The notes under the pieces are model-generated. The model was not told the DNA's origin. It did not search any database and saw only the letters and a program-made list of their open reading frames with translations. From Nitrososphaerales archaeon (GTDB taxonomy: Archaea; Thermoproteota; Nitrososphaeria; Nitrososphaerales; UBA57), in contig JAKUSK010000004.1 in NCBI GenBank assembly GCA_022449325.1, positions 1 through 36,061 of the forward strand: 36,061 nt of DNA. The letters run 5' to 3'. A program made the translations under genes and the position numbers. Below, in pieces: positions 3,538-30,598 of the stretch; positions within the stretch are counted from its first letter, which is position 1, and the number at the start of each line of letters is the position of its first letter.

Positions 3538-4792
3538 ATTTTTTAACCCTCGCAATAGGCATCGACATGTTATTATTTATAAAGTTAGTTTCCTCAATTC
3601 TAAGTAATTCATTTAGTTTAGAGATTCTTTCACCACCGACAACTCCACTTTTCATCATCACTGAACCAGAACCAATAGCAATGTGGGCTAGATGTGGATC
3701 AACTGTATCACCTGAACGATGAGATGCAATAATAGCATAATTATTTTGATTACATGAATTAGCAAATTCCATTGCGTCGCCCAATGCTCCTGCCTGATTT
3801 ACTTTCAGAATTACAGCATTGCCAGCATTTTGATCTATACCTTTTTGAAGTATAGAGGTATTTGTTACAAATAAATCGTCTCCAACAATGAGGCAATTAT
3901 CATTTTTAGAAGATAGTTCAGTAAAATCAGAGAAAGCCTCTTCATGAAGAGGATCTTCTACATAAATTAGATTATATTTTTCAATCAATTCAAGAACATA
4001 AGAAATTTGTTCCTCTGTATTACGAGATTTATTTTCACGAGAATAAACATAAAGTTCTTTATCAGGAATCCAAAGAGAAGAAGAAGCAACATCAAGACCT
4101 AATCGAATTTCGAATCCAACTGCGTCTGAGACAGTATTAATAGCTTCTTGGGCAACTTCAAGTGCTTCAGTGTTAGATAATTGTGGAGCCCATGCGCCTT
4201 CGTCGCCTTTACCGCCAGAGAATTTTGAATCTTTTTTATCAATAATTTTTTTGATTTCTTTATGAACTAGAAGATTAGCTTGGATACCAGAATGTATCGA
4301 ATCAGCTCCAAGAGGATAAGAAAGGAATTCTTGAATATCAGTTGAACCATTTCCTGCATGCATTCCACCGCCAAGAACATTTCCCAAAGGAAGTGGCATT
4401 TCGGCAGGCTTTCCGTTAAGAAGGATTTCATAAATTGGTTTATCTAGAATTTGTGAAGCTGCATCAATAGATGCAAGAGATATTGCATATGCAGCAGAAC
4501 CACCTATGTTGGAATAGTTATCAGTTTTATCCGCGTCTTTTAGGATGTTCTTAAGAGTAAAAATATCAGAACTATCTGCACCAATTAAATGAGATTTATA
4601 TTCATTAAGATAATCAATGGTGTCCTTGCATTGTGAGTTTCTAAAGGAAACTGCCTCAAATTTACCAACGCTAGCGCCAGCAGGAGATGATGCAGTACCA
4701 ATTGTGTCGCCTACATGCACGTCAACTTCTATGGTTTCGCTACCTCGACTATTATAGATTAAACGAGATTTGATATCAGTAATTTTTGTCAT
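3527..4792 (-). CDS. eno: Enolase (phosphopyruvate hydratase)
   Basis: ITDIKSRLIYNSRGSETIEVDV N-terminus, ...DDLFVTN..., ILKVNQAG, ASHRSGDT motifs. 421 aa. Confidence 0.95.
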   Translation of the reverse strand: MTKITDIKSRLIYNSRGSETIEVDVHVGDTIGTASSPAGASVGKFEAVSFRNSQCKDTIDYLNEYKSHLIGADSSDIFTLKNILKDADKTDNYSNIGGSAAYAISLASIDAASQILDKPIYEILLNGKPAEMPLPLGNVLGGGMHAGNGSTDIQEFLSYPLGADSIHSGIQANLLVHKEIKKIIDKKDSKFSGGKGDEGAWAPQLSNTEALEVAQEAINTVSDAVGFEIRLGLDVASSSLWIPDKELYVYSRENKSRNTEEQISYVLELIEKYNLIYVEDPLHEEAFSDFTELSSKNDNCLIVGDDLFVTNTSILQKGIDQNAGNAVILKVNQAGALGDAMEFANSCNQNNYAIIASHRSGDTVDPHLAHIAIGSGSVMMKSGVVGGERISKLNELLRIEETNFINNNMSMPIARVKKYVS

Positions 4793-6984: not shown

Positions 6985-7449
6985 TTGTCGACCGAATTCA
7001 AGTACATAGTAAGAATATTAGGCAGAGACGTCAGTGGTACGAAGAAAGTCATACAGGCTCTCTCCAATATCAAAGGAATTGGCAACAATTTAGCCCATTA
7101 TATCGTGAAATCATTAGAAATAGACAGAGAGTTGAGAATGGGTATGCTTTCAGATGAACAAATTAATGCTATTGAAGAAAATATCAAAAATATAGATAAA
7201 AAATATCCTGAATTTAATTTAAATCGTCAAAAAGATATGCAAACTGGTGAGAATCAACATGTTATTGAAACTGATTTAATTGTATCTAAAAAACAAGATA
7301 TTGACTTGGAAAGAATTTTACAGAGTTGGAGAGGAACAAGACACTCATTAAACTTGAAAGTAAGAGGGCAAAGAACTAGATGTACAGGAAGAGCAGGAAA
7401 AGTAGTAGGAGTACGTAAATCAACTCTAAAACCAGGAAAGGCGAGTTAG
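6985..7449 (+). CDS. rps13: 30S ribosomal protein uS13
   Basis: FKYIVRILGRDVSGTKKV..L..IKGIG...WRGTRHSLNLKVRGQRTR. TTG start as given in the track. Confidence 0.9.
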   Translation: MSTEFKYIVRILGRDVSGTKKVIQALSNIKGIGNNLAHYIVKSLEIDRELRMGMLSDEQINAIEENIKNIDKKYPEFNLNRQKDMQTGENQHVIETDLIVSKKQDIDLERILQSWRGTRHSLNLKVRGQRTRCTGRAGKVVGVRKSTLKPGKAS

Positions 7450-7453
7450 ATAA

Positions 7454-8101
7454 ATGGGAGATCCAAAATATTCAAGAAAAAAGTCGGCGCGACCTCGAAA
7501 CCCTTGGCAACGAAATTTATTAAAAGAAGAATTAGAATTAGTTGGTAGTTTTGGTTTAAGAAATAAAAAAGAACTTCATGTTGCGTCAACAGAGTTATCT
7601 AGAATTAGAAAACAAGCTAGGCAACTTCTGGCTGCAACAACAGAAATTAGAACAGCAAGAGAACCAATTTTATTAACATCATTATCAAGGAAAGGAATTG
7701 TCACTGATGATGCAACGTTAGATAATGTATTAGCACTTAATGTTTCTAGTTTTTTGGAAAGAAGATTACAAACAGTAGTATTAAGAAAAGGATTAGCAAG
7801 AACACCTCATCAAGCAAGACAATTAATTACACATGGACATATAGCAATAGGAAACAATAGAGTAAACATACCAAGTTATACGGTAACACGGGATGAAGAA
7901 CCATTAGTAAAGATGACCGATGGAAGTACATTTGTGCTGCAGGAGATAGCAGTTCCAGAGCCAAAAAGTGATACGTATGGAAATCCAGATGAAAAAGAAG
8001 AATTAGAATCAAAGGAAAAACCTGTTGAAGAAAAGACTGAAGCTAAAGAGGAAATAGAAGAAAAGACTGAAGCTAAAGAGGATGTAAAAGAAAATGAGTA
8101 G
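7454..8101 (+). CDS. rps4: 30S ribosomal protein uS4 with about 40-aa acidic Glu/Lys-rich C-terminal extension
   Basis: [10 protein letters not shown]...LERRLQTVV...[22 protein letters not shown] (S4 domain). The tail is ...[36 protein letters not shown]. Confidence 0.9.
8027..8082 (+). repeat. Tandem 30-nt duplication inside the uS4 tail (26-nt perfect copies at 8027-8052 and 8057-8082)
   Basis: gaagaaaagactgaagctaaagagga occurs twice with a 30-nt period, encoding [10 protein letters not shown] / [10 protein letters not shown]. Confidence 0.9.
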
Positions 8102-8531: not shown

Positions 8532-10298
8532 ATGTGTGGAATAACCGGCTACATTGGAGAGAAGGAAGCAGCTCCAGTTTTATTACAAGCGTTAAAAAGA
8601 ATGGAATATAGAGGTTATGATTCAGCAGGGATTTCAACTATTTACAAAGATAATGTAACAATAAAAAAAGACATTGGAAGAATTGATTCAATTAATGAGA
8701 AGATTGAACTTGGTAAAGCAGAAGGCAAAATCGGGGTTGCGCATACAAGATGGGCTACACATGGAGGAGTGACAAAAGAAAATGCACATCCACATTTATC
8801 ATGTAAACAAAAAGTAGTCATGGTTCATAATGGAATAATTGAAAATTATAGGCAATTATTTAAGGAATTATCAGACAACCATGAGATTAAAAGTGAAACC
8901 GATTCAGAAGTCATAGCACATTTAATTGAAGAAGAATACGATAAAGAAAAAAACCCATTAAAAACATTGCAAAATGTAAGTAAAAAATTAGATGGTAGTT
9001 TTGCATTAGTTGTGATTTTTAGTGATAAAAAAGATGAAATATACGGAGTGAGAAAATATGCGCCATTAATTGTTGGAATTGGTGAACAAGAGAATTTTAT
9101 TTCCAGCGACATAGTGTCATTTATTGATTATACAGATAATGTAATATTTTTAGAAGATAAAGAGATAGTAAAAGTAACATCAAATTCAATTGAGATTGTA
9201 AACTTTGATGGAGATAAAATATCACGAGATAAAACACATGTAGCTTGGGAAGCTGCAGATGTATCGAAGGAAGAGTTTTCGCACCATACAATTAAAGAGA
9301 TTCATGAACAGAGTTCTACAGTACAAAATGCATTAAATCAAGATGATGAAGAATTTGAAGAGTTTGTTAATAAATTAACTAGTGGTAAGAATATATTCAT
9401 CACAGGGTCAGGATCGAGTTTTCACATTGCCTTAATTTTTAGAAAAATGCTTACAAAATTTGTAGATAGTCCAGTTCAGGCGTTTCTATCCAGTGAATCA
9501 GAAGAATATATTGAATCAATGAATGACAATGCAATATTAATTCCCATATCTCAGAGTGGAGAGACTGCCGATTTACTTGAAGTAATACGTAATGTTAAGG
9601 ATAAAGGAGTTACAGTGTTATCGATATACAATACGGTAGGTTCTTCTTTATCAAGAGTAAGTGATTTTAGTCTTAATCTAAATTGTGGTCCTGAGATCGG
9701 AGTTGCTGCAACAAAGAGTTTCACATCTCAATTAGCAATAGTGTATAAAATAATATTCAAATTAGGAAATGTAAAAGATGGTAATGAGAAGATTATTGAA
9801 TTATCTAATAAGATAAAAGATATTTTATCAAAAGAAAAAACCTTACAAGAAATTATTGAATTAATTAATGAATCAAATGACGTGTATTTCTTAGGGAGAG
9901 CAATACATCATCCAATAGCATTAGAAGGTGCATTAAAGTTAAAGGAATTAGCTTACATTCATGCAGAAGGAATGGCAGCAGGTGAGATAAAACACGGTAC
10001 ATTAGCATTAGTAGAAGAAGGTACACCGGCGATTATCATTAATCCGAAGGATGAATCTTATAACGATACAATAAATAATGCAACCGAAATGAAAGCGAGA
10101 GGCGCAAAAATAATTGGAATATCAAGTGAAGATAATGAAGTTTATGATTATTGGATAGAAATTCCTAAAGTAGAGAATATGTTATATCCATTAATCGAGC
10201 TTGTGCCGTTGCAGCTGTTAGCATACTATACTGCGATTAGAAGAAAGAATAATCCAGATTATCCAAGAAACTTAGCAAAATCAGTTACTGTAAAGTAA
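8532..10298 (+). CDS. glmS: Glutamine--fructose-6-phosphate aminotransferase (isomerising)
   Basis: MCGITGYIG Ntn-amidotransferase start, two SIS-type regions, C-terminal ...PRNLAKSVTVK. 588 aa. Confidence 0.95.
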   Translation: MCGITGYIGEKEAAPVLLQALKRMEYRGYDSAGISTIYKDNVTIKKDIGRIDSINEKIELGKAEGKIGVAHTRWATHGGVTKENAHPHLSCKQKVVMVHNGIIENYRQLFKELSDNHEIKSETDSEVIAHLIEEEYDKEKNPLKTLQNVSKKLDGSFALVVIFSDKKDEIYGVRKYAPLIVGIGEQENFISSDIVSFIDYTDNVIFLEDKEIVKVTSNSIEIVNFDGDKISRDKTHVAWEAADVSKEEFSHHTIKEIHEQSSTVQNALNQDDEEFEEFVNKLTSGKNIFITGSGSSFHIALIFRKMLTKFVDSPVQAFLSSESEEYIESMNDNAILIPISQSGETADLLEVIRNVKDKGVTVLSIYNTVGSSLSRVSDFSLNLNCGPEIGVAATKSFTSQLAIVYKIIFKLGNVKDGNEKIIELSNKIKDILSKEKTLQEIIELINESNDVYFLGRAIHHPIALEGALKLKELAYIHAEGMAAGEIKHGTLALVEEGTPAIIINPKDESYNDTINNATEMKARGAKIIGISSEDNEVYDYWIEIPKVENMLYPLIELVPLQLLAYYTAIRRKNNPDYPRNLAKSVTVK

Positions 10299-10301
10299 AA
10301 G

Positions 10302-10538
10302 TTAGACATCAATAATTTCTTTATCTTCTTGATACGACCATTCTTCTGAAGAGAGTCTATTACTATCTTTATCATAGCAACATAATTGATTACCTTCGTC
10401 CTTGGTTTTACTATGTGTACTATCACAAAATGGATATGTTTTACTTATACCGCACATACAGATTTTGACTTTGTCTCCTGAAGGTGTAATATGAATAAAT
10501 GGCTTATCAGTAGAATGTTTAATTAACCTAGTCATCAA
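10302..10538 (-). CDS. Small CDGSH-type iron-sulfur domain protein (variant CDSTH)
   Basis: CMCGISKTYPFCDSTH fits C-x-C-x2-S-x3-P-x-C-D-(G)-x-H, with Ser in place of Gly. Confidence 0.65.
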   Translation of the reverse strand: MMTRLIKHSTDKPFIHITPSGDKVKICMCGISKTYPFCDSTHSKTKDEGNQLCCYDKDSNRLSSEEWSYQEDKEIIDV

Positions 10539-10589
10539 AAATACTAAGAAAAATTAGTAATTAAATTTACAGGAAAATCGGAAGATTAG

Positions 10590-10686
10590 TGGGCCCGCCC
10601 GGATTTGAACCGGGGACCTTCGCCATGTAAAGGCGACATCCTAACCATTCTAGGAGTTAAATTAACTCTGGCTAGACGACGAGCCC
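10590..10686 (-). tRNA. tRNA-Val (anticodon UAC) interrupted by an approximately 22-nt non-canonical intron in the D-loop
   Basis: Hand-folded reverse complement: GGGCTCG TC GTCT AGCC[AGAGTTAATTTAACTCCTAGAA]TGGTTA GGAT G TCGCC TTTACAT GGCGA AGGTC CCCGG TTCAAAT CCGGG CGGGCCC A. 7-bp acceptor stem, T-arm with TTCAAAT loop, anticodon loop TT-TAC-AT. Confidence 0.85.
10648..10669 (-). other. D-loop intron of tRNA-Val with a bulge-helix-bulge-like fold
   Basis: The intron hairpin GAGTTAA/TTAACTC is flanked by a 4-bp CTAG/CTAG helix between 5' exon and intron 3' end, with about 3-nt bulges on opposite strands. Boundaries are accurate to about 1-2 nt. Confidence 0.7.
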
Positions 10687-10759
10687 CCTATATAATTTCT
10701 GTAATGATTATTTTAAGTCTTCATCCTTAAATTAGATTTTACAATATTCTATTAGAACG

Positions 10760-12001
10760 ATGAAAAGCGATATTTTGGTAATAGATCCAAGCATAGCAGG
10801 AATATCAGGAGACATGATGTTAAGTTCAATAATAGATATTGGAGCAGATGAAAAACTAGTAATTGAAAATTTAGAATCAATAAAAGATTATTTTAAGAGT
10901 TGTAAAAAACTTGAAATAAGTTTCAAGGATGTAACGAAAAATGGTTTTCGTGCAAAAAAAGCAGACATCATAATTGAGGAAGACAAGAATAGTCACAATG
11001 TAGATGAATTAAATCATAATTTAGAAAGGAGTATTGAGAATGTTTCTATATCACATAATGCAAAGGCGTTTATAAAAAATTCTTTTGAGAATTTAATTTC
11101 TGCTGAAAGTGCGTTACATGGTATTAGTAATAAAGAAATGCATTTACATGAAGCAGGTTCAATAGATACATTTGTAGACATTATTGGAACAGGAATTGCA
11201 TTAGATAATTTAAAATTATTTAATTTAAAAGAGATTATAACTACGCCAGTTTCAGTTGGAGGTGGAGATATAACATTCTCCCATGGGAAGATGCAGAATC
11301 CAGCACCTGCAATATTAGAGATCGCAAGAAGAAACAATATAATGATTAGAGGAGGTCCTGGAATGTATGAAACGGCTACTCCAACAGGAATGGCAATGCT
11401 TGCTGCATTAGTAGAGGAAAGTCAAGAAATTTTTCCTGGAATAAAACCAGAATTAATAGGAGTAGGAGCTGGATCTTCGGAGTTTAAGGAAATACCAAAT
11501 ATATTAAGAATTACTTTGGGGGAGAAATCTACGTTATTGACTGATGAAATTGCGATAATTGAAACTAACATAGATGACAGAACAGGAGAAGAGTTAGGTT
11601 ATGCAATGCAAAGAATAATTGATAATGGCGCATTAGACGTATCATTAATACCTACAATTGGAAAGAAAGGACGACCAAGTAATGTACTGAAAGTCATTAC
11701 AAATTTAAGTAAATCTGAATTTTTTTCCGATTTAGTAATGAGGGAAACAGGAACACTAGGTGTGAGAGTTTATCCAATGTCAAGATTCATACAAATGAGA
11801 GAAAATTTGAAGGCAAATATTACAATAAAGAATAATGATGAAGAGATTGATGTAAAAGTAGTTAAATCAGAGTCAGGAGAAATAATCCAATTTAAACCTG
11901 AATTTGATCAAATTGTCAAATTGTCAGAAAAATACAAAATCAATTTAATTGAATTAAAGAATGATATATCAAAACAAATACAAAGAGAATTATTTAATTA
12001 A
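10760..12001 (+). CDS. larC: LarC-family nickel insertion protein (DUF111; pyridinium-3,5-bisthiocarboxylate mononucleotide nickel chelatase)
   Basis: N-terminal ILVIDPSIAGISGDMMLSSIIDIGAD is the DUF111/LarC signature. Single unsplit 413-aa ORF. Adjacent to larB and larE. Confidence 0.8.
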   Translation: MKSDILVIDPSIAGISGDMMLSSIIDIGADEKLVIENLESIKDYFKSCKKLEISFKDVTKNGFRAKKADIIIEEDKNSHNVDELNHNLERSIENVSISHNAKAFIKNSFENLISAESALHGISNKEMHLHEAGSIDTFVDIIGTGIALDNLKLFNLKEIITTPVSVGGGDITFSHGKMQNPAPAILEIARRNNIMIRGGPGMYETATPTGMAMLAALVEESQEIFPGIKPELIGVGAGSSEFKEIPNILRITLGEKSTLLTDEIAIIETNIDDRTGEELGYAMQRIIDNGALDVSLIPTIGKKGRPSNVLKVITNLSKSEFFSDLVMRETGTLGVRVYPMSRFIQMRENLKANITIKNNDEEIDVKVVKSESGEIIQFKPEFDQIVKLSEKYKINLIELKNDISKQIQRELFN

Positions 12002-12752
12002 TTTTTTTAACAATGATTGATGCAAGAACTCCTGCAGCAATACCAGAATCTATATTGACAGTAGCAATTCCAAGAGCGCAAGATTGGAGCATACTCATTA
12101 GAGCTGCAGTTCCTTTGTCTCCGTAACCATAGCCAATTGATGTTGGAACGCCAATAACAGGTATATCCACCAGACCGGCAATAATAGAAGCCATAGCTCC
12201 TTCACGACCAGCAACTGCAATTATTACATCTACGTCATCTTGAATAACGGATGAAAGTGAAGAAAATAATCGATGTATTCCCGCTACTCCAACATCATAA
12301 TATGTAGTATTTTTGCAACCTACTTCATCAAGAATTACTTTGGCTTCCTCAGCGACAGGAATGTCAGCTGTACCTGCAGTTATAATTGCAACGTGTCCAT
12401 GAATTGGTGTTTTCTTTTTTGTAGATAAAACAACAGTATTTGCAAGAGTGTTTTTACGAATATGTTTTTTTGGAAAAGATTTAGAGATTGCTGTAAGATG
12501 AGATTTATTTGTACGACTGATAATAACATGGCCGGAAGTTGAAAACATATTTTTAGCGATTTTAACAACTTGATCTGGAGATTTTCCTTCAGCAAGAATA
12601 ATTTCAGGAACGCCTTTTCTGTGTGCTCGACCAGTATCTAGCTTGGCAATATCTTGAACTTCAGAAATTGAATTTAATTGAATTTGTTTTTTTGCAGCCG
12701 TAGGAGTAAGTTCTCCAGTAGAAACTTTCTTTAATATTTCATCAATGGTCAT
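11994..12752 (-). CDS. larB: LarB (PurE-like pyridinium-3,5-biscarboxylate mononucleotide synthase)
   Basis: VAIITAGTADIPVAEEAKV...GVAGIHRL...AVAGREGAMASIIAGLVDIPVIGVPTSIGYGYG, a PurE-like C-terminal domain with the LarB-type N-terminal extension. Confidence 0.8.
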   Translation of the reverse strand: MTIDEILKKVSTGELTPTAAKKQIQLNSISEVQDIAKLDTGRAHRKGVPEIILAEGKSPDQVVKIAKNMFSTSGHVIISRTNKSHLTAISKSFPKKHIRKNTLANTVVLSTKKKTPIHGHVAIITAGTADIPVAEEAKVILDEVGCKNTTYYDVGVAGIHRLFSSLSSVIQDDVDVIIAVAGREGAMASIIAGLVDIPVIGVPTSIGYGYGDKGTAALMSMLQSCALGIATVNIDSGIAAGVLASIIVKKIN

Positions 12753-12762
12753 TTTTATGAGA

Positions 12763-13569
12763 TTATTTGTTTAGATTACCTGATTTATAACCTGATAGTT
12801 CAAGAGTTATGTATTTGAAACCTAGATCTTTCAATTCCTGATCAATTTTATCCATGATTAATTCATTAAATAATAGTGAACGTTCATTTTTACCTACTTC
12901 AATTCTGGCAATATTATTGTGATCACGAACACGTAATATTTCAATTCCTGTAAGTTCTTTGATTAAAGCTTCGGCTCTTTCAATTTTAGAAAGTGTTTTT
13001 AGAGTAATAGGTTGACCATAAGCTACACGAGAAGAAAGGCAGGGTGCAGATGGTCGATCTGCAGTAGGTAATTGAAGATGTTTGGAAATATTTCGAATAT
13101 CAACTTTAGTAAACTCAAGATCTACAAAAGGATGAAGAATTTTATTTTCATCTGCGGCAACTAATCCAGGGCGAAAGTCGGATAAATCGTCAAGATTTGT
13201 TCCATCAACTATAACTTTGATGTTTTTTTCTTTCGAAATATCTGATAAAGTTGAGAATAATTCAGATTTACAATAATAACATCGATTAGATGAATTTTTG
13301 AGATAATCAGGATTATCCATTTCGTTTGTATTGACAATCAAGTGTTCAATTCCAATTGATTTAGCAAGAGATTGTGCATTTTTCAATTCGCTTCTTGGAA
13401 TACTAGGTGAATCAGCCGTTACTGCAATAGCCCGTTTTCCCAAGCTCATAAAGGCAGCTTTGGCCAATAGCGTACTATCTACTCCACCGGAAAATGCAAT
13501 TATAACTGAATCAAAGGACTTAAACCAAGATTCCAGTTCCTGTAATTTTGATGTAATTATACTCTGCAA
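12763..13569 (-). CDS. larE: LarE (PP-loop ATP pyrophosphatase-type sulfur transferase)
   Basis: PP-loop AFSGGVDST, NRCYYCK (CxxC) and APCLSSRV cysteine motif. 268 aa. 10 nt upstream of larB. Confidence 0.8.
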   Translation of the reverse strand: MQSIITSKLQELESWFKSFDSVIIAFSGGVDSTLLAKAAFMSLGKRAIAVTADSPSIPRSELKNAQSLAKSIGIEHLIVNTNEMDNPDYLKNSSNRCYYCKSELFSTLSDISKEKNIKVIVDGTNLDDLSDFRPGLVAADENKILHPFVDLEFTKVDIRNISKHLQLPTADRPSAPCLSSRVAYGQPITLKTLSKIERAEALIKELTGIEILRVRDHNNIARIEVGKNERSLLFNELIMDKIDQELKDLGFKYITLELSGYKSGNLNK

Positions 13570-13611
13570 TTCTATAATTTTGTAAACATTACAATGGTTA
13601 AAATGTTTTAA

Positions 13612-14172
13612 TTATTCAATCGTGATGGTACGATTTTCAGTAATAATCAAATCCATTGGAACGTCATGTTCTTGGATATCAATGGTATTAATAAGTTGAA
13701 AATCAAATGCCAATGCGATTTTATATATAGAAGCATGAAGAGTTAGAAATTTATCATAGTAACCAGAGCCAAAGCCCAATCGATTACCTGATTTGTCAAA
13801 AGCAATACCAGGAACAATTACAGCATCGATGTTAGTGCAAATCACACCATCAACAGGCTCAGGAATATCAAGATAATTTTCCCTAAGATTCTCCATTCCG
13901 TCGATTGTGTGGAAATCCATAGTTTTAGATTGTCGATCAATTTTAGGCAAACAAACATTTTTTCCTAAATCAAGTGTTTTTTGAATCATACTAGAGGTGA
14001 GAACTTCCGTTTTTAGCGAATAATAGAAGCCGATGCAGTCGCTTTCTTTGAAGATTTGAGTCGAGAATAATTTATCCATTATAATATTAGAATTTTTATC
14101 TATATCATCTGTAGACTGTAAGTTACGAATATGTTTAATCTTATTACGAATTGATTCACGATTATCAGTCAT
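13612..14172 (-). CDS. 5-formyltetrahydrofolate cyclo-ligase family protein
   Basis: VIVPGIAFDKSGNRLGFGSGYYDKFL signature. I prefer the ATG at 14172 (MTDNRESIRNKI...), which removes the overlap of the track ORF (start 14205) with the upstream gene. Confidence 0.75.
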   Translation of the reverse strand: MTDNRESIRNKIKHIRNLQSTDDIDKNSNIIMDKLFSTQIFKESDCIGFYYSLKTEVLTSSMIQKTLDLGKNVCLPKIDRQSKTMDFHTIDGMENLRENYLDIPEPVDGVICTNIDAVIVPGIAFDKSGNRLGFGSGYYDKFLTLHASIYKIALAFDFQLINTIDIQEHDVPMDLIITENRTITIE

Positions 14173-14179
14173 ATGTGTA

Positions 14180-14551
14180 TTAATTATTATCTTTAATCCA
14201 GGCAATTAATGCTTTTTCATTAGAATCACTACGATTATCGATTACAGGAACAACAATGTTTTCTTGTGGGGAAGTAATAGTTGGAGTAAAGCTAGGCATG
14301 TTTGCGTATTCGATATCAACCCATAGTATGCCTTTGTCAATAAATTGTTCTGAAAGTTGATCGTCAATACCGCTAAAAGTTAGATTTTGAATTCGATAGA
14401 CAATACCATCAATCCATTTAACATAGGGTGATGCCATTGAATGAGATTGTATAGCAGTTCGTCGGGCTAAATTATCAGGTGAATCGTGTTTAATTAAACT
14501 AGAAATTACATATTCTTGCACTTGTTTAGAGCTAATTTTCATCTTTCTCAC
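14180..14551 (-). CDS. Hypothetical protein (123 aa), no recognisable motif
   Basis: Long ORF in the coding direction of a tightly packed gene string, 26 nt after the DsrE-like gene and 7 nt before MTHFS. I recognise no family. Confidence 0.5.
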   Translation of the reverse strand: MRKMKISSKQVQEYVISSLIKHDSPDNLARRTAIQSHSMASPYVKWIDGIVYRIQNLTFSGIDDQLSEQFIDKGILWVDIEYANMPSFTPTITSPQENIVVPVIDNRSDSNEKALIAWIKDNN

Positions 14552-14577
14552 TTACAGTGAGTTTAAAGTTGTAATAC

Positions 14578-15078
14578 TTAAATGAATAGTGTTAAAGCGT
14601 CGGGTTCACTAGCCCAAGATAAAAATGCTGAAGCGCCAACAATATCGTCGACTTCGGGAATAAGATTTTCTTCTTTTACATCCATGAATCCCATAGTAGG
14701 AGAACAAGCATGGAGTTTAACGCCGCTGTCTTTAGCCATTTTAATCATGTCGTAAACATTCGGCCAGAATTTTTCAATCTTGCTCTTCATCATAGTAGAA
14801 GCCATTTTAGTCATTCCAGGTATTACACCGACTATATTTGGCATAGGCATACCAGGATTTCCAACAGGAGCAATTTTTACTGAATTAACACCGTCCTTAG
14901 TTAGTGCTTTCAGACCCCAAAAAGTAAAATACATATCAACTTTCATTCCCATAGCAGGTGCTGTAGTGGCGAGAACAAGTGCAGGATAGAGCATGTCTAT
15001 AGTGCCTTTAGATACGACCAATATGAGTCGTTTCTTAAGTTGTTGATTTTCTGGTTGGATATCGGTCAAATTCATCAC
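14578..15078 (-). CDS. DsrE/DsrF-like (DsrE2/3-type) sulfur-relay family protein
   Basis: LILVVSKGTIDMLYPALVLATTAPAMGMKVDMYFTFWGL and KLHACSPTM (conserved Cys), typical of the DsrE_2 / COG2210 family. ATGA-type 4-nt overlap with the upstream TusA gene. Confidence 0.7.
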   Translation of the reverse strand: MMNLTDIQPENQQLKKRLILVVSKGTIDMLYPALVLATTAPAMGMKVDMYFTFWGLKALTKDGVNSVKIAPVGNPGMPMPNIVGVIPGMTKMASTMMKSKIEKFWPNVYDMIKMAKDSGVKLHACSPTMGFMDVKEENLIPEVDDIVGASAFLSWASEPDALTLFI

Positions 15079-15341
15079 TTTTTCTGTATGTGAAATACAA
15101 AGGTTTTGGGAGAAGTCTCTTCTACAGTACTTTCAAGCAATATGTTTCCTGTGGTATGAGCCCATCCTTCAAAATCAATAGGGGCTCCAGGATCAGTTGC
15201 AATTACTTTAAGAATCTGTCCTGAAGATAATTTAGAGATTTCCTTAGCAGTATTGATAATAGGAAGTGGACAAAGCAAGCCTTTCTGATCTAAGGTTTGG
15301 GAGATGTTTAGATTTTCAGTCATCACTTTATCCAACTCCAA
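15075..15341 (-). CDS. TusA/SirA-like sulfur carrier protein
   Basis: GLLCPLPIINTAKEI carries the CPxP active-site motif. 88 aa. Confidence 0.75.
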   Translation of the reverse strand: MELDKVMTENLNISQTLDQKGLLCPLPIINTAKEISKLSSGQILKVIATDPGAPIDFEGWAHTTGNILLESTVEETSPKTFVFHIQKK

Positions 15342-15345
15342 TTAA

Positions 15346-16026
15346 CTACGCTTTAGAAGGATCGGCGACCAGACGAATATAAGGCTTGACTGTCCTCCAA
15401 CCATCTGGAAACAAAGATTCTGCCTCTTCGTTTTTAACAGCTGGGACAATTATAACATCGTCGCCTTTCTTCCAATTTGCAGGAGTAGCTAATTTATGGT
15501 TCACGGTCAATTGAAGGGAATCAATAATTCTAAGTAGTTCATGGAAGTTACGACCTGTAGCCATAGGATAAGTAAGTTGTAGTTTGATCTTTTTGTCAGG
15601 ACCGATGATGAAAACTGATCTAACAGTTTGATTATCAGCAGCTGTACGTCCAACACAACTACCTTCAGTAGAAGCAGGTAACATGTCATATAGCTTTGCA
15701 ATACGAAGTTCGGTATCTGCGATAAGCGGATAATTAGGACGAAATCCTGTAACTTCAGCAATGTCGTCTAGCCATGCTACGTGATCAGAAACTGCATCAA
15801 CACTAAGTCCGATAACTTTAGTGTTTCTTGCAACAAATTCTGATTCTAACTGAGCAAGTGCGCCAAGTTCTGTAGTACATACTGGCGTGAAATCTTTTGG
15901 ATGAGAGAATAATACAACCCATCCGTCACCAATCCAATCATGAAATGAGATTTCACCTTGAGTGGTTTCTACTTTAAAATCAGGTGCGACGTCATTTATT
16001 CTAAGAGACATCAGCAGATCCTCCAT
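15346..16026 (-). CDS. Peroxiredoxin (1-Cys/Prx6-like)
   Basis: FSHPKDFTPVCTTELG peroxidatic Cys motif. The start may be the internal ATG at 16011 (MSLRINDVAPDF). Confidence 0.9.
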   Translation of the reverse strand: MEDLLMSLRINDVAPDFKVETTQGEISFHDWIGDGWVVLFSHPKDFTPVCTTELGALAQLESEFVARNTKVIGLSVDAVSDHVAWLDDIAEVTGFRPNYPLIADTELRIAKLYDMLPASTEGSCVGRTAADNQTVRSVFIIGPDKKIKLQLTYPMATGRNFHELLRIIDSLQLTVNHKLATPANWKKGDDVIIVPAVKNEEAESLFPDGWRTVKPYIRLVADPSKA

Positions 16027-16055
16027 TTTCTTTATTTTTTATATTTTGGTTCATT

Positions 16056-16076
16056 AATTATAACCCCGTTATAATT
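16056..16076. promoter_or_regulatory. Perfect 9-bp inverted repeat (AATTATAAC-ccc-GTTATAATT) 30-50 nt upstream of the peroxiredoxin start; candidate operator overlapping the TATA region
   Basis: Read directly from the sequence at 16056-16064 and 16068-16076. The AT-rich background makes chance occurrence plausible. Confidence 0.3.
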
Positions 16077-16193
16077 ATAATGGCGTTGTATATATAAAGG
16101 TTATGAAAAGACCGGAAGAAATTAAATAATTCTAGTGATAATTAGAAAAGAAATAATCTCATAGATTTAAATGAAGGATAAAGATGATGTGAT

Positions 16194-16538
16194 ATGAATA
16201 CTAAAAATACAAACGCAAATGGAAAGATAGAACTACCAGTAGAATTCCAGGTTGATGTAAGTTTAACAGAATCAAATATTTCTGGAAAAATTTTTAATGG
16301 CGATCTAGAAATTCCAATCTATATAAAATATGGAGATAAAGAAATTTTAATTCCTGAAGAATTTAAAGATGTTGGAAAAAATGTGAAGATAAATTTTACA
16401 ACAGAAAATGAGAACACGGTAATTACAACTGGAAAAGCAAAAAGTAATGAGATCCAATTAGTTCAAATATACGATACAGAATTATGGAATAAGATGGCCA
16501 ATGATAATCCAGTAACAATGTATATCGAAACAATTTAG
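16194..16538 (+). CDS. Hypothetical protein (114 aa)
   Basis: ORF 28 nt upstream of, and co-directional with, the NAD-binding/TM fusion gene. No recognisable motif. Confidence 0.45.
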   Translation: MNTKNTNANGKIELPVEFQVDVSLTESNISGKIFNGDLEIPIYIKYGDKEILIPEEFKDVGKNVKINFTTENENTVITTGKAKSNEIQLVQIYDTELWNKMANDNPVTMYIETI

Positions 16539-16566
16539 TAGCATTACTAAAAATATAATATAAGAA

Positions 16567-17910
16567 ATGAAAATACTAGTAACTGGAGCAAGTGGATTTA
16601 TCGGTAAGAAACTTGTTCAACATTTATTGGACAAAAACATATCCGTTCGAATAATGTCAAGAAGATTAGAAAGTTTGGATGGGTTTGAACATAAAAATCT
16701 AGAAAAAGTAAAAGCTAATGCACAGAAATATGAAGAAGTACGAGATGCATTAAAAGGAATAGATATTGCATATTACCTTATTCATTCAATGGAAGGTGAA
16801 TCAAAGGATTGGAAGAAATTTGCAGAAATTGATAAAAAAGTTGCAAAGAATTTTGCAGATGCTTCAACTGAATGTGGAGTAAAGAGGATAATATATGTAG
16901 GAGGATTAGTAAGTATTCCAGATTCGGAAATGTCGAAGCATATGTCAAGTAGAAAAGAAGTAGGTGAAATTCTAAAGTCATCTGAGGCTAAAACAACGAT
17001 ATTTCGTGCGTCTGTAGTACTCGGTAAAGGAGGAGGAGGATTTGAAATGATGAGATATTTGGTAGAGAGATTACCCGTAATGGTATGTCCAAAATGGGTT
17101 TTAACGAAATTACAACCTATTTACATTGATGATGTAGTAGAATATCTCTATGAAAGTTTGAATGTCAAAGAAACTGAGAATCGAACGTTCGATATTGGCG
17201 GGCCTGATATATTAGAATATAGAGAGATGATGAAAGCATATGGAAAAATGAATAATAAATCCATAATCATGATAATCATACCATTTCTAAGTCTAAGATT
17301 TACTTCATATTGGGTGGATCTAGTCACTCCAATTAAAGCTTCATTAGCTAGACCATTAGTAGAGGGATTAAAAAATGAATCAATAATGACTGAGGAGTCC
17401 ATAATGGATTTAATTCCAATTAAATTAAAAGGAGTGGAAGAATCATTAAAGTTATCAATTTATGAAGATGATAAACACGAGTTTACCAAAAAAGAAAATT
17501 ATCTATCTTATTTAGTGATGGCACTGAGTATCATAGGAATTTTGCATTTACTTGTTGATCAAAGATTAATGATGATGTTACCAATAACAGGAACAGTATC
17601 AGTGATTTGGTTAGCAATAATTGGAGCAGGATATTATTTCATAAAACAGAGAGCAAGATTAGGATCTTTATTAGTAGGAATTGCTGGTTGGTCTGCTGCA
17701 CTGTTTTGGTTAGTAGATAGTACGTATTTGATTTCCTATTTGCCTCAAATAGGGCCATATCCAGTTAGCAAAGGAATATCAATATTAGGAACTTATCCAA
17801 GTGTTAATACATCAATATTAAACATAATAGGACTTTGTGTAATTGCAGTGTTATTAGTTGTAGCACACTTTACATTCTACGATAAAGATCTTTACACTAA
17901 ACAATTATAG
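16567..17910 (+). CDS. NAD(P)-binding Rossmann (SDR/NmrA/epimerase-like) protein fused to a C-terminal domain of about 4 transmembrane helices
   Basis: MKILVTGASGFIGKKLVQHL dinucleotide-binding motif. The last 130 aa or so are strongly hydrophobic (YLVMALSIIGILHLL..., VIWLAIIGAGYYF..., LLVGIAGWSAALFWLV..., IIGLCVIAVLLVVAHF). Confidence 0.7.
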   Translation: MKILVTGASGFIGKKLVQHLLDKNISVRIMSRRLESLDGFEHKNLEKVKANAQKYEEVRDALKGIDIAYYLIHSMEGESKDWKKFAEIDKKVAKNFADASTECGVKRIIYVGGLVSIPDSEMSKHMSSRKEVGEILKSSEAKTTIFRASVVLGKGGGGFEMMRYLVERLPVMVCPKWVLTKLQPIYIDDVVEYLYESLNVKETENRTFDIGGPDILEYREMMKAYGKMNNKSIIMIIIPFLSLRFTSYWVDLVTPIKASLARPLVEGLKNESIMTEESIMDLIPIKLKGVEESLKLSIYEDDKHEFTKKENYLSYLVMALSIIGILHLLVDQRLMMMLPITGTVSVIWLAIIGAGYYFIKQRARLGSLLVGIAGWSAALFWLVDSTYLISYLPQIGPYPVSKGISILGTYPSVNTSILNIIGLCVIAVLLVVAHFTFYDKDLYTKQL

Positions 17911-18360
17911 GACAATAAGGAAATATCCTAAAGCTGCTCCATAAATTGCGTGATTTACGAAGCTTCCAATTACAGGAATATTACCCAATGGATGCTCAAG
18001 TGGCTTAACTTTAGTAATAGGTTCATGAATAATCAATACCACAAGAGCAAAAAGAAAGCCTAAAATTGTTCCTGAAATCAAATATGATACTTGAAAGTCA
18101 ATAACACTAACTATAATTGCAAAAGCAATACCGCCTAATCCACCATGAAGAAGATGAAAAAGAAAACTTGGAATTAATAGTTCTTCAGGGTTTTTTTTGA
18201 TGAATTTGGAAGTAATAACTTGGTTTTCGTGCCATTCAAGAACAGATGTCATTCCCCATTTTTTATACATTGGAACTTGAAGAATAGACATTGCAGCTGT
18301 TGCAATAAAACCTGCAATTAATCCATTAATAATAAAAACAATATCCATTTCAAACACCAA
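17905..18360 (-). CDS. Uncharacterised 4-TM membrane protein, paralog B
   Basis: Hydrophobic. Shares YKKWG, E-x-HE, and (G/N)HAIYG motifs with the gene immediately upstream. Overlaps it by 11 nt (or starts at the ATG at 18348). Confidence 0.55.
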   Translation of the reverse strand: MVFEMDIVFIINGLIAGFIATAAMSILQVPMYKKWGMTSVLEWHENQVITSKFIKKNPEELLIPSFLFHLLHGGLGGIAFAIIVSVIDFQVSYLISGTILGFLFALVVLIIHEPITKVKPLEHPLGNIPVIGSFVNHAIYGAALGYFLIVL

Positions 18361-18841
18361 TGTACAAAATTAATGCTATATAGAAATCAACAACTGATAC
18401 ATAAGATTGAGACAAAATGAAACCATAAATCGCATGGCCAAATACACTAACTAAAGCAGGTTTATAGCCAAATGGATTATCACGTAAAGATTCACCAGTA
18501 ATTAATTTGTGGACAGGTAATAAGGTAACAATCCAAACAACAATAGCATAAATTATTCCTAGTAATATTGTTGGTAAAGTATTTGTGAGATTAATGTAAA
18601 AAACAAATGGAATTGACAATAATGATCCATTAATCATATGAGTAAGAAGTCCGAATGAAGAGATTTTATTTTTGAATTCTCGATTTGTTAGTTTACAAAA
18701 CATCATTTCACTTTCATGAAGTTCATAGACTCCTTTGATTCCCCATTTTTTATAAAATGGATATTCAGAAATAGACATAACTACAGTAGGAAGAATTCCT
18801 GCTATGAATCCAACAAACAAATAATGTATGTAATTCAACAC
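18350..18841 (-). CDS. Uncharacterised 4-TM membrane protein, paralog A
   Basis: MSISEYPFYKKWGIKGVYELHESE... and ...VFGHAIYGFIL parallel MSILQVPMYKKWGMTSVLEWHENQ... and ...FVNHAIYGAAL in the downstream gene. Confidence 0.55.
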   Translation of the reverse strand: MLNYIHYLFVGFIAGILPTVVMSISEYPFYKKWGIKGVYELHESEMMFCKLTNREFKNKISSFGLLTHMINGSLLSIPFVFYINLTNTLPTILLGIIYAIVVWIVTLLPVHKLITGESLRDNPFGYKPALVSVFGHAIYGFILSQSYVSVVDFYIALILYIGV

Positions 18842-22824: not shown

Positions 22825-22888
22825 AAAATCAACTCAATTAAGACAAATATATTATAACTAGAAAATAAGCATTATTGGATAAAATAAA

Positions 22889-23005
22889 GTGCCGGCACCA
22901 TTGCTTCCCGAGACCGTTGGGACCTCAGTAACACACTGGCGTCGACGGTCTTAACTTCTGGGTTCGGAATGGGACCAGGTGGAACCCCGTCGCTATGGCC
23001 GGCAA
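22889..23005 (-). rRNA. rrf: 5S ribosomal RNA, not linked to 16S/23S
   Basis: The reverse complement reads UUGCCGGCCAUAGCGACGGGGUUCCACCUGGUCCCAUUCCGAACCCAGAAGUUAAGACCGUCGACGCC...GGGAAGCAAUGGUGCCGGCAC. It contains the conserved CCGAAC...GAAGUUAAG core and a terminal helix GCCGGC/GCCGGC. GC-rich against an AT-rich background. Confidence 0.9.
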
Positions 23006-23039
23006 CAATAGATAATAAAAATTACACATAGATTAACTT

Positions 23040-28301: not shown

Positions 28302-29165
28302 GTGTCATTGAATCGAGAAGAATTAATTAAGGAGTTAGAAATTAGATCTGAAAGTTACATACTAAGATTTGATAAAGCATTAGTCAAAGTATTTGATAAT
28401 CATCAATGGTCTAGTTTTCATGAACCGTTACTTTATGCAACACATGGAGGTAAGAGAATTAGGCCTTTGATTTTAATGCTTGCAGCTGAAGCTGTCGGTG
28501 TTCCGTCTACTAAAACAGATTTAGCTTCAGTAGCTGTGGAACTCTTACATACAGAATCAATTATACATGATGACATAATTGATGAACAAATTAAGAGACG
28601 TGATAGAGATTCATTTCATAAGAGATATGGAAATAATACATCAATTTTAACAGCTGATTTCGTTTTTGGTATAATTCTAGAAATTGCCTCCAGATATAAT
28701 GATCCACGAGTGGCAAAAGAGCTTTCACTTGCTGCAATTAAGATGTGCGAAGGAGAACAAAGAGAACTAAGTATGAATTCACGAGAAGTGCCATGGGTAG
28801 AATACTTGACAGTGAGTAGTGAGAAAACAGCTGCATTATTCCTGACATCATCTAAATTAGGAGCAATAATAGGTGGAGGAAATGAAGAAGAGATAGATGG
28901 TTTAGCTGGATTTGGCGTAAATCTAGGAATTGCATATCAAATTCATGATGACATACTTGATTGGGAAACTGATAGAAAGTTTTCAAATGATATGAACATA
29001 GATAACGAGATTCAAGAAAATGAGTATGTTACATTGACAAAATTAAAAGAAATGGCAAATGTGTATGCGGAAAATGCAAAGAACAGTTTAGACGTAATCA
29101 AAGATTCGGAACAAAAAGAATTCCTGCACGATTTAGCCGATTTTACGATCAGACGGGATTATTAG
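28302..29165 (+). CDS. Polyprenyl (geranylgeranyl) diphosphate synthase
   Basis: First and second Asp-rich motifs LLHTESIIHDDIID and AYQIHDDILD. GTG (28302) or TTG (28308) start. Confidence 0.85.
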   Translation: MSLNREELIKELEIRSESYILRFDKALVKVFDNHQWSSFHEPLLYATHGGKRIRPLILMLAAEAVGVPSTKTDLASVAVELLHTESIIHDDIIDEQIKRRDRDSFHKRYGNNTSILTADFVFGIILEIASRYNDPRVAKELSLAAIKMCEGEQRELSMNSREVPWVEYLTVSSEKTAALFLTSSKLGAIIGGGNEEEIDGLAGFGVNLGIAYQIHDDILDWETDRKFSNDMNIDNEIQENEYVTLTKLKEMANVYAENAKNSLDVIKDSEQKEFLHDLADFTIRRDY

Positions 29166-30597
29166 ATAAGAAAGACAATGTAATATCTTCTGAGATATTA
29201 TACAAAACATTTGGAAGTAAACCAGTAACTATGATTATAGCAGAAGCAAACAAAAGAATTGAGACAAAGATGAAAGGCTCTTTTATAGACTTTAGTGATG
29301 TTTCATCCATATACATTCTTTTGATTACTAGTAAATAATAAGCAACAGAAATTGCACTGTTAACAAGTCCTGCAAGAGCAAGCCAAGTATAACCTCCATC
29401 AACTGCTGCGGAAAACAACACTAACTTACTCCAAAATCCATTTAATGGTGGAATTCCTGCTAGACCTAATAATGACAATGCTAAACAGAATGAGGTTATT
29501 GGCATTACTTTAGAAAGACCGTTATAACTATCTAATGAACTACTAGAAGTTTTTAATCTGACTAATGCAACTGCCAAGAAAGCAGAAGCCTGCAAAATTG
29601 CATGATTAAAAGAATGATATAATAAACCAAGTAAACCAAGATCAGAATACGGTAATACAACTAGACCAATGAGAAGATATCCAGCTTGTGCAATACTAGA
29701 ATAAGCAAGCATTCTTGTAATGGATTTTTGAGTAAGTGCGGCAAGATTGCCAAGAGTCATAGTTACTAAAGCGACAATAGACAAAGCAAGTGCTAAATCA
29801 AAATAAAATAGTGGAAATATTACTGCGAATATTCTTATTGCTGCGGCGAAGCCAGCTTTCTTGGTAGCGGCAGAAAGCAATGCACTGATAGTCGTAGGAG
29901 AACCCTCGTATGTATCTGGAATCCACATATGGAATGGAACAATTGATAATTTCAAGCCAAGACCTGCAAGCATAGAGATTGTAGAAAATATTATGAATGG
30001 AAGCATATCTGCAGAAACCGTAGGGAGAGACTGAGATATAATTTCAAGATTAGTAGAGCCTGTAATTCCAAACATTAATGAGATACCATAAAGAAGAATT
30101 CCCGACGATAAGGCGCCTAGAATAAAGAATTTGACTGCAGCTTCGTTGGAAAGTTTATCTTGTTTATTATATCCAGCCAAAATAAACGTAGGAAGACTCA
30201 TCAATTCCCATGCGACAAATATAACAAGGAGATCTACTGCAAAGGAAAGCATAGTCATTCCAATTGCTGTAAATAATAATAGTGAATAATAGATATTTTC
30301 ATTTGAATTACCTTTCATGTAATCAAACGAGGTTATGGTAACAAACAATGTTACTAAGATAACCATGAGACTAAAAAATGAACCAAGAGTGTCGTTACGA
30401 AGAAGATGAGGGACAGTAGATTCTTGAGGTGTAAGAGATAATGTGGAACTAATCAATAAAACTAAAGAGACCAACAATGAAAGTGTAGTAATATATTGAA
30501 CGTATTTTATGGATTTTTTACCAAATATTATTCCATATAGTGGAGAGGTAACTGCAACAGAAGTTAAAATAATGAGTACTATGATTGGAGTATCCAA
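29149..30597 (-). CDS. nuoN: NADH-quinone oxidoreductase subunit N
   Basis: Antiporter-like, about 14 TM. FVAWELMSLP, HMWIPDTYEGSPTTISALLSAATKKAG. Last gene of the K-M'-L-M-N string. Confidence 0.85.
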   Translation of the reverse strand: MDTPIIVLIILTSVAVTSPLYGIIFGKKSIKYVQYITTLSLLVSLVLLISSTLSLTPQESTVPHLLRNDTLGSFFSLMVILVTLFVTITSFDYMKGNSNENIYYSLLLFTAIGMTMLSFAVDLLVIFVAWELMSLPTFILAGYNKQDKLSNEAAVKFFILGALSSGILLYGISLMFGITGSTNLEIISQSLPTVSADMLPFIIFSTISMLAGLGLKLSIVPFHMWIPDTYEGSPTTISALLSAATKKAGFAAAIRIFAVIFPLFYFDLALALSIVALVTMTLGNLAALTQKSITRMLAYSSIAQAGYLLIGLVVLPYSDLGLLGLLYHSFNHAILQASAFLAVALVRLKTSSSSLDSYNGLSKVMPITSFCLALSLLGLAGIPPLNGFWSKLVLFSAAVDGGYTWLALAGLVNSAISVAYYLLVIKRMYMDETSLKSIKEPFIFVSILLFASAIIIVTGLLPNVLYNISEDITLSFLSNNPV

Positions 30598-30598
30598 G

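Follow-up and report, generated by a model that had tools for sequence, protein, structure and literature searches.

The window analysed here is a stretch of 36,061 nucleotides (nt) from a Nitrososphaerales archaeon (contig JAKUSK010000004.1 of assembly GCA_022449325.1, positions 1-36,061 of the forward strand). It encodes LarB, LarE and LarC, a complete set of proteins for the synthesis of the nickel-pincer nucleotide (NPN). LarE and LarB close a string of seven genes on the minus strand that begins with a peroxiredoxin (Prx), a TusA-family sulfur carrier and a DsrE2-like protein. An initial annotation had put forward, as a hypothesis, that this arrangement is a sulfur-relay branch dedicated to NPN synthesis, in which TusA and the DsrE-type protein feed LarE, and we show here that the relatives of the locus speak against such a branch. 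In the order of transcription the string consists of a 1-Cys-type, Prx6-like peroxiredoxin (15346-16026), TusA with its CPLP motif (15075-15341), the DsrE2-like protein (14578-15078), a protein of 120 amino acids (aa) without known domain, termed unk120 (14180-14542; the open reading frame (ORF) runs to 14551 and would give 123 aa), the 5-formyltetrahydrofolate cyclo-ligase MTHFS (13612-14172, 186 aa from the ATG at 14172; ORF to 14205), the PP-loop ATP-dependent sulfur insertase LarE of the CxxC…C type (12763-13569, TTG start) and LarB, the nicotinic acid adenine dinucleotide (NaAD) carboxylase/hydrolase of NPN synthesis (11994-12752). LarC, a fused LarC1+LarC2 protein and CTP-dependent nickel insertase, lies on the plus strand (10760-12001). 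Order, strands and spacings were reproduced from the ORF table and the sequence, with gaps of 4, 26, 7, 42 and 10 nt, an overlap of 4 nt between the DsrE-like and TusA genes and a convergent overlap of 8 nt between the 3' ends of LarC and LarB. Relatives and gene calls make later starts more likely for three genes, namely ATG 16011 for Prx (221 aa), ATG 15323 for TusA (82 aa), which widens the gap to Prx from 4 to 22 nt, and ATG 14542 for unk120 (120 aa), which leaves 35 nt to DsrE2. More than 20 independent marine metagenome contigs carry exactly the same LarE sequence in the same gene order, and the named members of its sequence cluster are metagenome-assembled genomes of Nitrososphaerales/Thaumarchaeota.

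All family assignments of the named genes hold against Pfam and NCBIfam profiles, and the three Lar proteins each score above a curated cut-off. LarE reaches 316 bits with TIGR00268 (cut-off 150), above the equivalog threshold, and has the PP-loop motif FSGGVDS (SGGxDS), which is invariant. LarB, with its AIRC domain, reaches 249 bits with NF033503 (cut-off 175), and LarC 146 bits with TIGR00299 (cut-off 90) and 113 bits with NF052512 (cut-off 50), in addition to its match to PF01969 (E 1.7e-105). MTHFS scores 156.7 bits with TIGR02727 (cut-off 84.9). Prx combines the AhpC-TSA domain (PF00578, E 3e-28) with 1-cysPrx_C (PF10417, E 7.5e-9) and carries its peroxidatic cysteine in FTPVCTTE; against the nearest NCBIfam equivalog, PRK13189, it scores 195.5 bits, slightly under the cut-off of 211. 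TusA (PF01206, E 7.8e-17) and the DsrE2-like protein (PF13686, E 2.9e-35) reach the Pfam thresholds, however both stay below the NCBIfam equivalog cut-offs, with 43.3 bits against the E. coli TusA model PRK00299 (cut-off 78) and 116.5 bits against the DsrE2 model NF047629 (cut-off 210). The PDB entry closest to the DsrE2-like protein, 2qs7, is itself an uncharacterized protein. Proteins with PF13686 are often labelled 'peroxiredoxin family protein' in the sources, which is an annotation habit and not evidence. The carrier cysteines are in place, since homologue alignments reveal an invariant C24-P25 in TusA (CPLP) and an invariant Cys125 in the HACSP motif of the DsrE-like protein.

LarE carries the sequences NRCYYCK and APCLSSR, and the cysteines C97, C100 and C177 are invariant in all 14 homologues aligned (48-100% identity). 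In a pairwise comparison with the sacrificial LarE of L. plantarum, the CxxC pair aligns with W..A, and hence is absent there, while C177 corresponds to Cys176. The protein also matches the structure of M. maripaludis LarE (PDB 8cnz). In T. maritima LarE the triad C92/C95/C172 binds a [4Fe-4S] cluster and the enzyme is catalytic, with a need for sulfane sulfur from an external donor (Chatterjee et al., 2022; PMC9283937). Sulfur was supplied to that enzyme in vitro by the persulfide of E. coli IscS, and the majority of LarE homologues have the CxxC…C motif (PMC9283937). The statement in the initial annotation that the three-cysteine pattern marks catalytic LarE proteins of the [4Fe-4S] type, which need an external sulfur donor, agrees with this report. 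By its motif we infer that the LarE of the window belongs to the catalytic [4Fe-4S] type and would bind a cluster and depend on an external donor. The triad, however, is the usual state of LarE and not peculiar to this locus.

Comparison with related loci, given here by locus number, separates the string into parts. The full string, from Prx to LarB with LarC convergent, is found in loci of the window type (the window, L103-L110 and L112), and L011, L097 and L113 have the identical string minus Prx. The lar genes also occur in other surroundings. In L013, L115 and L128 the genes for unk120, MTHFS, LarE and LarB, with convergent LarC, lie beside a divergent gene for a membrane protein of 348 aa. 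L015 has the order CBS–CBS–MTHFS–LarE–LarB, with unk120 (L120) about 190 kilobases (kb) away on the same freshwater contig of 1 megabase (Mb), and in L129 LarE, LarB and LarC stand by themselves. TusA and DsrE2 are missing beside the lar unit in L015, L128 and L129. The convergent overlap of LarC and LarB is retained in every clade relative. On the far side of LarC, separated from it by 221 nt, lies a divergent gene for a small iron-sulfur protein of the CDGSH type (10302-10538, minus strand), which is constant in the syntenic marine clade and not in L013/L128. The segment 4030-6677 of L013, and likewise L014, encodes a 236-aa fusion of a GcvH-like lipoyl carrier with TusA next to a two-domain rhodanese and the 348-aa membrane protein, which belongs to no known family; all of these genes are divergent from the lar unit. 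Conversely, TusA and a DsrE2-like gene, overlapping at their junction in the same way, form a free-standing pair among unrelated genes in L098 and L099 (DsrE2 70% and 61% identical, respectively, the latter beside topoisomerase IB), with no lar genes within 7 kb.

The adjacency of TusA/DsrE2 and the lar genes is present in most members of the marine clade, which at first sight favors a functional connection. However, the synteny map shows that all loci that retain it have in common a block that extends over more than 20 kb between TrpRS and RpoD, so that its conservation carries no information beyond general synteny. Where the order has been rearranged by inversion, the breakpoints fall exactly between DsrE2 and unk120. 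In L125 the order is DsrE2, TusA, unk120, with the first two genes on the strand opposite to unk120, and in L118 TusA and Prx are inverted jointly and followed by two DUF6789 genes and unk120 on the other strand. Conservation of the adjacency in relatives had been set beforehand as a test of the relay; it turns out to be absent, inverted or deleted in several of them, and elsewhere it is explained by the shared block. Co-occurrence of carrier and client across lineages beyond general synteny was not found.

Putative promoter elements follow the same division. A motif scan of positions 11900-16200 revealed a sole perfect TTTAWATA on the transcribed strand, the consensus archaeal TATA box TTTATATA at 16098-16091 (minus strand), upstream of Prx. 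In the Prx-less loci L011, L097 and L113 a box homologous to TTTATATA, together with its flank, precedes TusA by 38 nt, and in the inverted locus L125 it moves with TusA. As the same promoter sequence precedes Prx here and TusA in relatives without Prx, Prx was either inserted behind the TusA promoter or lost from it. The presumed promoter, TusA and DsrE2 behave as a self-contained unit. A second TATA-like box, TTTAAGTA (14582-14575, minus strand), has one mismatch, overlaps the stop codon of DsrE2 and lies 40 nt upstream of the unk120 ATG, a geometry like that of the TusA promoter in relatives. It is therefore probable that the lar unit is transcribed from a separate promoter, situated where DsrE2 ends. 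A third box, the A/T sequence CATTTTAA (13598-13605, minus strand), precedes the LarE start by 36 nt and may act as an internal promoter element. Relatives within the clade retain it, and TTTAA-type boxes occur at the same distance from LarE in L013 and L128. Runs of five T residues were found by the motif scan only inside DsrE2 and after LarB, and none between the genes of the string. Of two hairpins seen by eye, the one in the gap between DsrE2 and unk120 is not conserved in relatives, while the stem of the one between MTHFS and LarE is mostly kept in the closest relatives. An Rfam scan gave no regulatory RNA in the lar/TusA region. In sum, the sequence permits co-transcription of the whole string, yet it suggests that the lar half is served by one or more internal promoters.

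Two relatives have lost TusA and most of DsrE2 by deletion. In L111, compared with L109 (95-97% nt identity), 1343 nt are missing; the gap opens 53 nt before the Prx start and closes near codon 104 of DsrE2, and the remaining DsrE2 fragment has a change from W to stop. In L114, compared with L113/L097 (90.7% nt identity over the lar unit), just codons ~100-166 of DsrE2 are left, frameshifted and preceded by pentose-phosphate genes. The decaying 3' remnants lie in the segments 7344-7991 (L111) and 4456-4714 (L114). Since the two loci belong to different sub-lineages, the losses occurred independently of each other. Both variants encode unk120, MTHFS, LarE, LarB and LarC at full length, with C97, C100 and C177 retained in LarE. 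The deleted stretches stop short of the unk120 ATG by 192 and 227 nt, so that the segment with TTTAAGTA is preserved in both. LarE, LarB and LarC of the deletion variants are under purifying selection relative to loci that are intact, with ratios of nonsynonymous to synonymous substitution rates (dN/dS) of about 0.09-0.2 as an average over the entire divergence and not only over the time since the deletion. Intact lar genes beside a deleted pair speak against a LarE that strictly depends on the TusA/DsrE2 next to it.

Outside the phylum we inspected, among the matches listed, 80 loci with a LarE of the CxxC type (one genome per GTDB species, 1.27 Mb in total, all from phyla other than Nitrososphaerota). 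A TusA-family gene lies within 10 kb of LarE in two of these 80 loci, L091 and L027, and is directly adjacent in one, L027. A single-sequence phmmer search missed the TusA of L027, which was added by an iterated hidden Markov model that found nothing more. In L027 (Desulfitobacterium sp. Sab5, 9698-11649) an 83-aa TusA with the motif CPIT precedes LarE on the same strand at a distance of 51 nt. Downstream of LarE follows a convergent gene of the ThiF family; LarB and LarC do not occur within 10 kb. The case of L091 (Alkalihalobacillus) was rejected as an independent association of TusA/DsrE with Lar, as the genes belong to a cst-like operon for sulfide detoxification and opposite-strand genes lie between it and larEBC. 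Like the window, this operon of the Staphylococcus/Bacillus cst type encodes TusA- and DsrE-family proteins, in L091 within 6 kb of larEBC, however it comes with rhodanese fusions, a persulfide dioxygenase and TauE, none of which is present in the window. The literature searched contained no link between LarE and TusA and likewise nothing relevant on Nitrosopumilus and TusA.

Known systems resemble individual parts of the locus. With the [4Fe-4S] LarE, LarB and LarC proteins of T. maritima (PMC9283937) and M. maripaludis (8cnz) the window shares the SGGxDS motif, the CxxC pair and the distal cysteine at equivalent positions, a LarB gene next to LarE and a LarC that is fused; both would also rely on sulfane sulfur from an external donor, which for the window follows from the motif. 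What differs here is the Nitrososphaerota host, the operon headed by unk120 and MTHFS, the convergent instead of co-directional LarC and the absence of a nearby LarA, and the Fe-S cluster is a prediction. In the Tus relay of E. coli, sulfur passes from IscS to TusA, then via TusBCD (DsrEFH-like) and TusE to MnmA, which like LarE is a PP-loop enzyme. The two systems have in common a Cys-Pro carrier of the TusA family and a protein of the DsrE/TusD superfamily beside an ATP-dependent thiolation enzyme of the PP-loop type, and this likeness makes a flow of sulfur from TusA/DsrE to LarE chemically plausible. However, homologues of TusB, TusC and TusE are absent here, the DsrE-like protein belongs to PF13686 and is not TusD, the would-be target is a pyridinium dicarboxylate and not a tRNA, the equivalog cut-offs are missed and the transfer is hypothetical. 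Sulfur oxidisers also possess modules of TusA with DsrE2 or DsrE3, for example in the hdr-dsrE2-dsrE3A-tusA cluster of Metallosphaera cuprina. In the window, too, an archaeal TusA adjoins a protein of the DsrE2 type that has one conserved cysteine, but sHdr, Dsr or Sox genes are not found nearby and in this phylum the pair lies beside unrelated housekeeping genes. To our knowledge, dissimilatory oxidation of sulfur has not been described in the host clade.

We consider it probable that the seven-gene string arose when three units with separate inheritance came to lie side by side in one lineage, within a syntenic block that is conserved in a clade of pelagic marine Nitrososphaerota. The first unit would consist of unk120, MTHFS, LarE and LarB with the convergent LarC and would serve NPN synthesis. 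Here, LarB would carboxylate and hydrolyse NaAD, LarE would adenylylate both carboxylates and replace them by thiocarboxylates via a non-core sulfide on its three-cysteine [4Fe-4S] cluster, and LarC would insert the nickel. The second unit would be the translationally coupled carrier pair TusA–DsrE2-like with its own TATA promoter, distributed across Nitrososphaerota regardless of lar genes, and its role would most likely be a general trafficking of persulfide, with a cysteine desulfurase as the source and a number of thiolation enzymes as recipients. The third unit, the 1-Cys Prx, would be a late insertion between the TusA promoter and TusA, confined to one sub-lineage. In the lineage of the window, read-through among the units would be possible, as there is no T-run terminator between them. 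The TusA–DsrE2 pair is then neither dedicated to nor required for NPN synthesis; LarE may be one of several sulfur clients of TusA, which would be a facultative donor at most.

Several observations weigh against this reading. The short gaps and the lack of intergenic T runs fit one long transcript, made by possible read-through from the Prx promoter. In L013 and L014 only, other sulfur-carrier genes, namely the GcvH–TusA fusion and the rhodanese, are situated upstream of the lar unit, at a distance of 1-3 kb. The adjacency in Desulfitobacterium is an isolated hint that a link between TusA and LarE can be selected, although it does not establish a general pattern. The deletion variants, which are available as contigs only, might have a second TusA–DsrE2 copy elsewhere, and the dN/dS values average over the entire divergence, of which the time since the deletions is only a part.

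Among the alternatives, the one that survives best places the functional connection within unk120–MTHFS–LarE–LarB, where MTHFS and/or unk120 would take part in the Lar pathway, regulate it or use its product in archaea without LarA. We regard this as unlikely. No gene accompanies LarE–LarB in Nitrososphaerota more steadily than MTHFS. The order MTHFS–LarE–LarB recurs in L011, L013, L015, L097 and L128, and it does so in three lineages with entirely different flanks (that of the window, L013/L128, and L015), in two of which unk120 stands at the head. However, MTHFS scores as a canonical equivalog and may be a plain housekeeping enzyme, and in the 80 listed loci of other phyla it occurs just once, 9 kb from LarE, hence with no link to it. 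A connection between NPN and 5-formyltetrahydrofolate was not found in the literature searched. The protein unk120, encoded by the first gene of the lar unit in the marine clades, has no Pfam or NCBIfam match. Its family is small; a search of 1.84 billion proteins gave 44 representatives at E<=1e-3, and these come from TACK archaea only, including Nitrosotalea and Bathyarchaeota. An AlphaFold2 model from a 26-sequence alignment is confident, with a predicted local distance difference test (pLDDT) score of 90.7 and a predicted template modelling (pTM) score of 0.82 (a model from seven close sequences was unusable, with a pLDDT of 46), and a Foldseek search of the PDB gave no meaningful match (best E 0.27). 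This fold without PDB analogue speaks for the connection with Lar; the remote relatives speak against it. A role of unk120 as a generally Lar-specific accessory protein was rejected, because lar genes are not found close to its remote homologues in Nitrosotalea and Bathyarchaeota, and because unk120 is far from them on the freshwater contig.

Two reports on the distribution of LarA also count in favor of this alternative. The window contains no LarA, as the initial annotation had stated; none of its ORFs of at least 100 aa is LarA-like. In ammonia-oxidizing archaea LarA is reported only from the sediment clades NP-theta, -delta and -iota (Kerou et al., 2021), and hence is reported absent from the pelagic ones, and ~15% of genomes have larBCE without larA (PMC11796402). 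Orphan larBCE is therefore already a known phenomenon; for pelagic Nitrososphaerota it was not discussed in the literature searched.

It appears less likely still that Prx, TusA and DsrE2 form a thiol/persulfide module of the redox stress response that is unconnected to the lar genes and, for example, resolves the Prx sulfenate or handles persulfides arising under peroxide stress. The three genes lie 4-22 nt apart behind one TATA promoter, they are deleted together in L111, Prx and TusA are inverted as one piece in L118, and a 1-Cys Prx requires an external thiol partner. However, Prx is missing beside TusA–DsrE2 in L011, L097, L113, L125, L098 and L099, which implies that the pair is older than its association with Prx and functions without it, and no biochemical precedent for such a module was found in the literature searched.

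The dedicated relay itself, in which TusA and the DsrE2-like protein would be specialised for NPN synthesis, co-transcribed with larE and larB and carry persulfide from a desulfurase to the open iron site of [4Fe-4S]-LarE, is improbable. It draws on the short gaps on one strand, the donor requirement of a catalytic-type LarE, the parallel to the Tus relay and the one independent adjacency in L027. Against it stand the pair without lar genes (L098, L099), the lar unit without the pair (L015, L128, L129), the inversions in L118 and L125, two independent losses of the pair with lar genes still under purifying selection, the general synteny that accounts for the conserved adjacency, the two cases among the 80 listed outside loci and the missed equivalog cut-offs. 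Much of what the initial annotation had listed as refuting the relay is thereby observed. Thus, of the initial interpretation the gene identities, the type of LarE and the chemical plausibility of the transfer stand, while the dedicated branch does not. Equally improbable is a combined reading, in which pelagic marine Nitrososphaerota, reportedly without LarA, keep unk120–MTHFS–LarE–LarB/LarC to supply a client other than LarA with NPN or with a similar pyridinium that carries thiocarboxylates, with unk120 as a new carrier, chaperone or client subunit of the NPN pathway and TusA–DsrE2 as the physiological persulfide donor to [4Fe-4S] LarE.

Some further features of the window lie outside these questions. 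The region 16194-18841, upstream of the string, differs among close relatives and encodes a 114-aa ORF without family, a pair of DUF6789-like membrane paralogues, which in L118 directly precedes unk120, and an NAD-epimerase-like protein of 447 aa that seems to be embedded in the membrane with its C-terminal half. On the minus strand, positions 29149-35717 encode four antiporter-like subunits of the Proton_antipo_M type (NuoL/M/N-type; 482, 497, 699 and 509 aa) in a row, compared with the three that are usual in complex I. A stand-alone 5S rRNA (22887-23006, minus strand) is the sole Rfam match in the window, and a tRNA scan of the window found none.

The adjacency at this locus is mostly inherited synteny between separable units and is therefore unfit as guilt-by-association evidence. 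As a sulfur donor to catalytic LarE enzymes of the [4Fe-4S] type just E. coli IscS has been shown to act, and this in vitro. A genuine relay from TusA/DsrE to LarE in abundant marine archaea, if true, would address the question of the physiological donor, and the combined reading, if it held, would provide the first natural sulfur-delivery route for NPN synthesis. The genotypes of L111 and L114 could be used as natural TusA/DsrE2 knock-outs and controls. The orphan lar cluster bears on those genomes, about 15%, that make NPN without a known NPN enzyme, and the conserved core of unk120, MTHFS, LarE and LarB is, alongside the deletion genotypes, a lead to follow.

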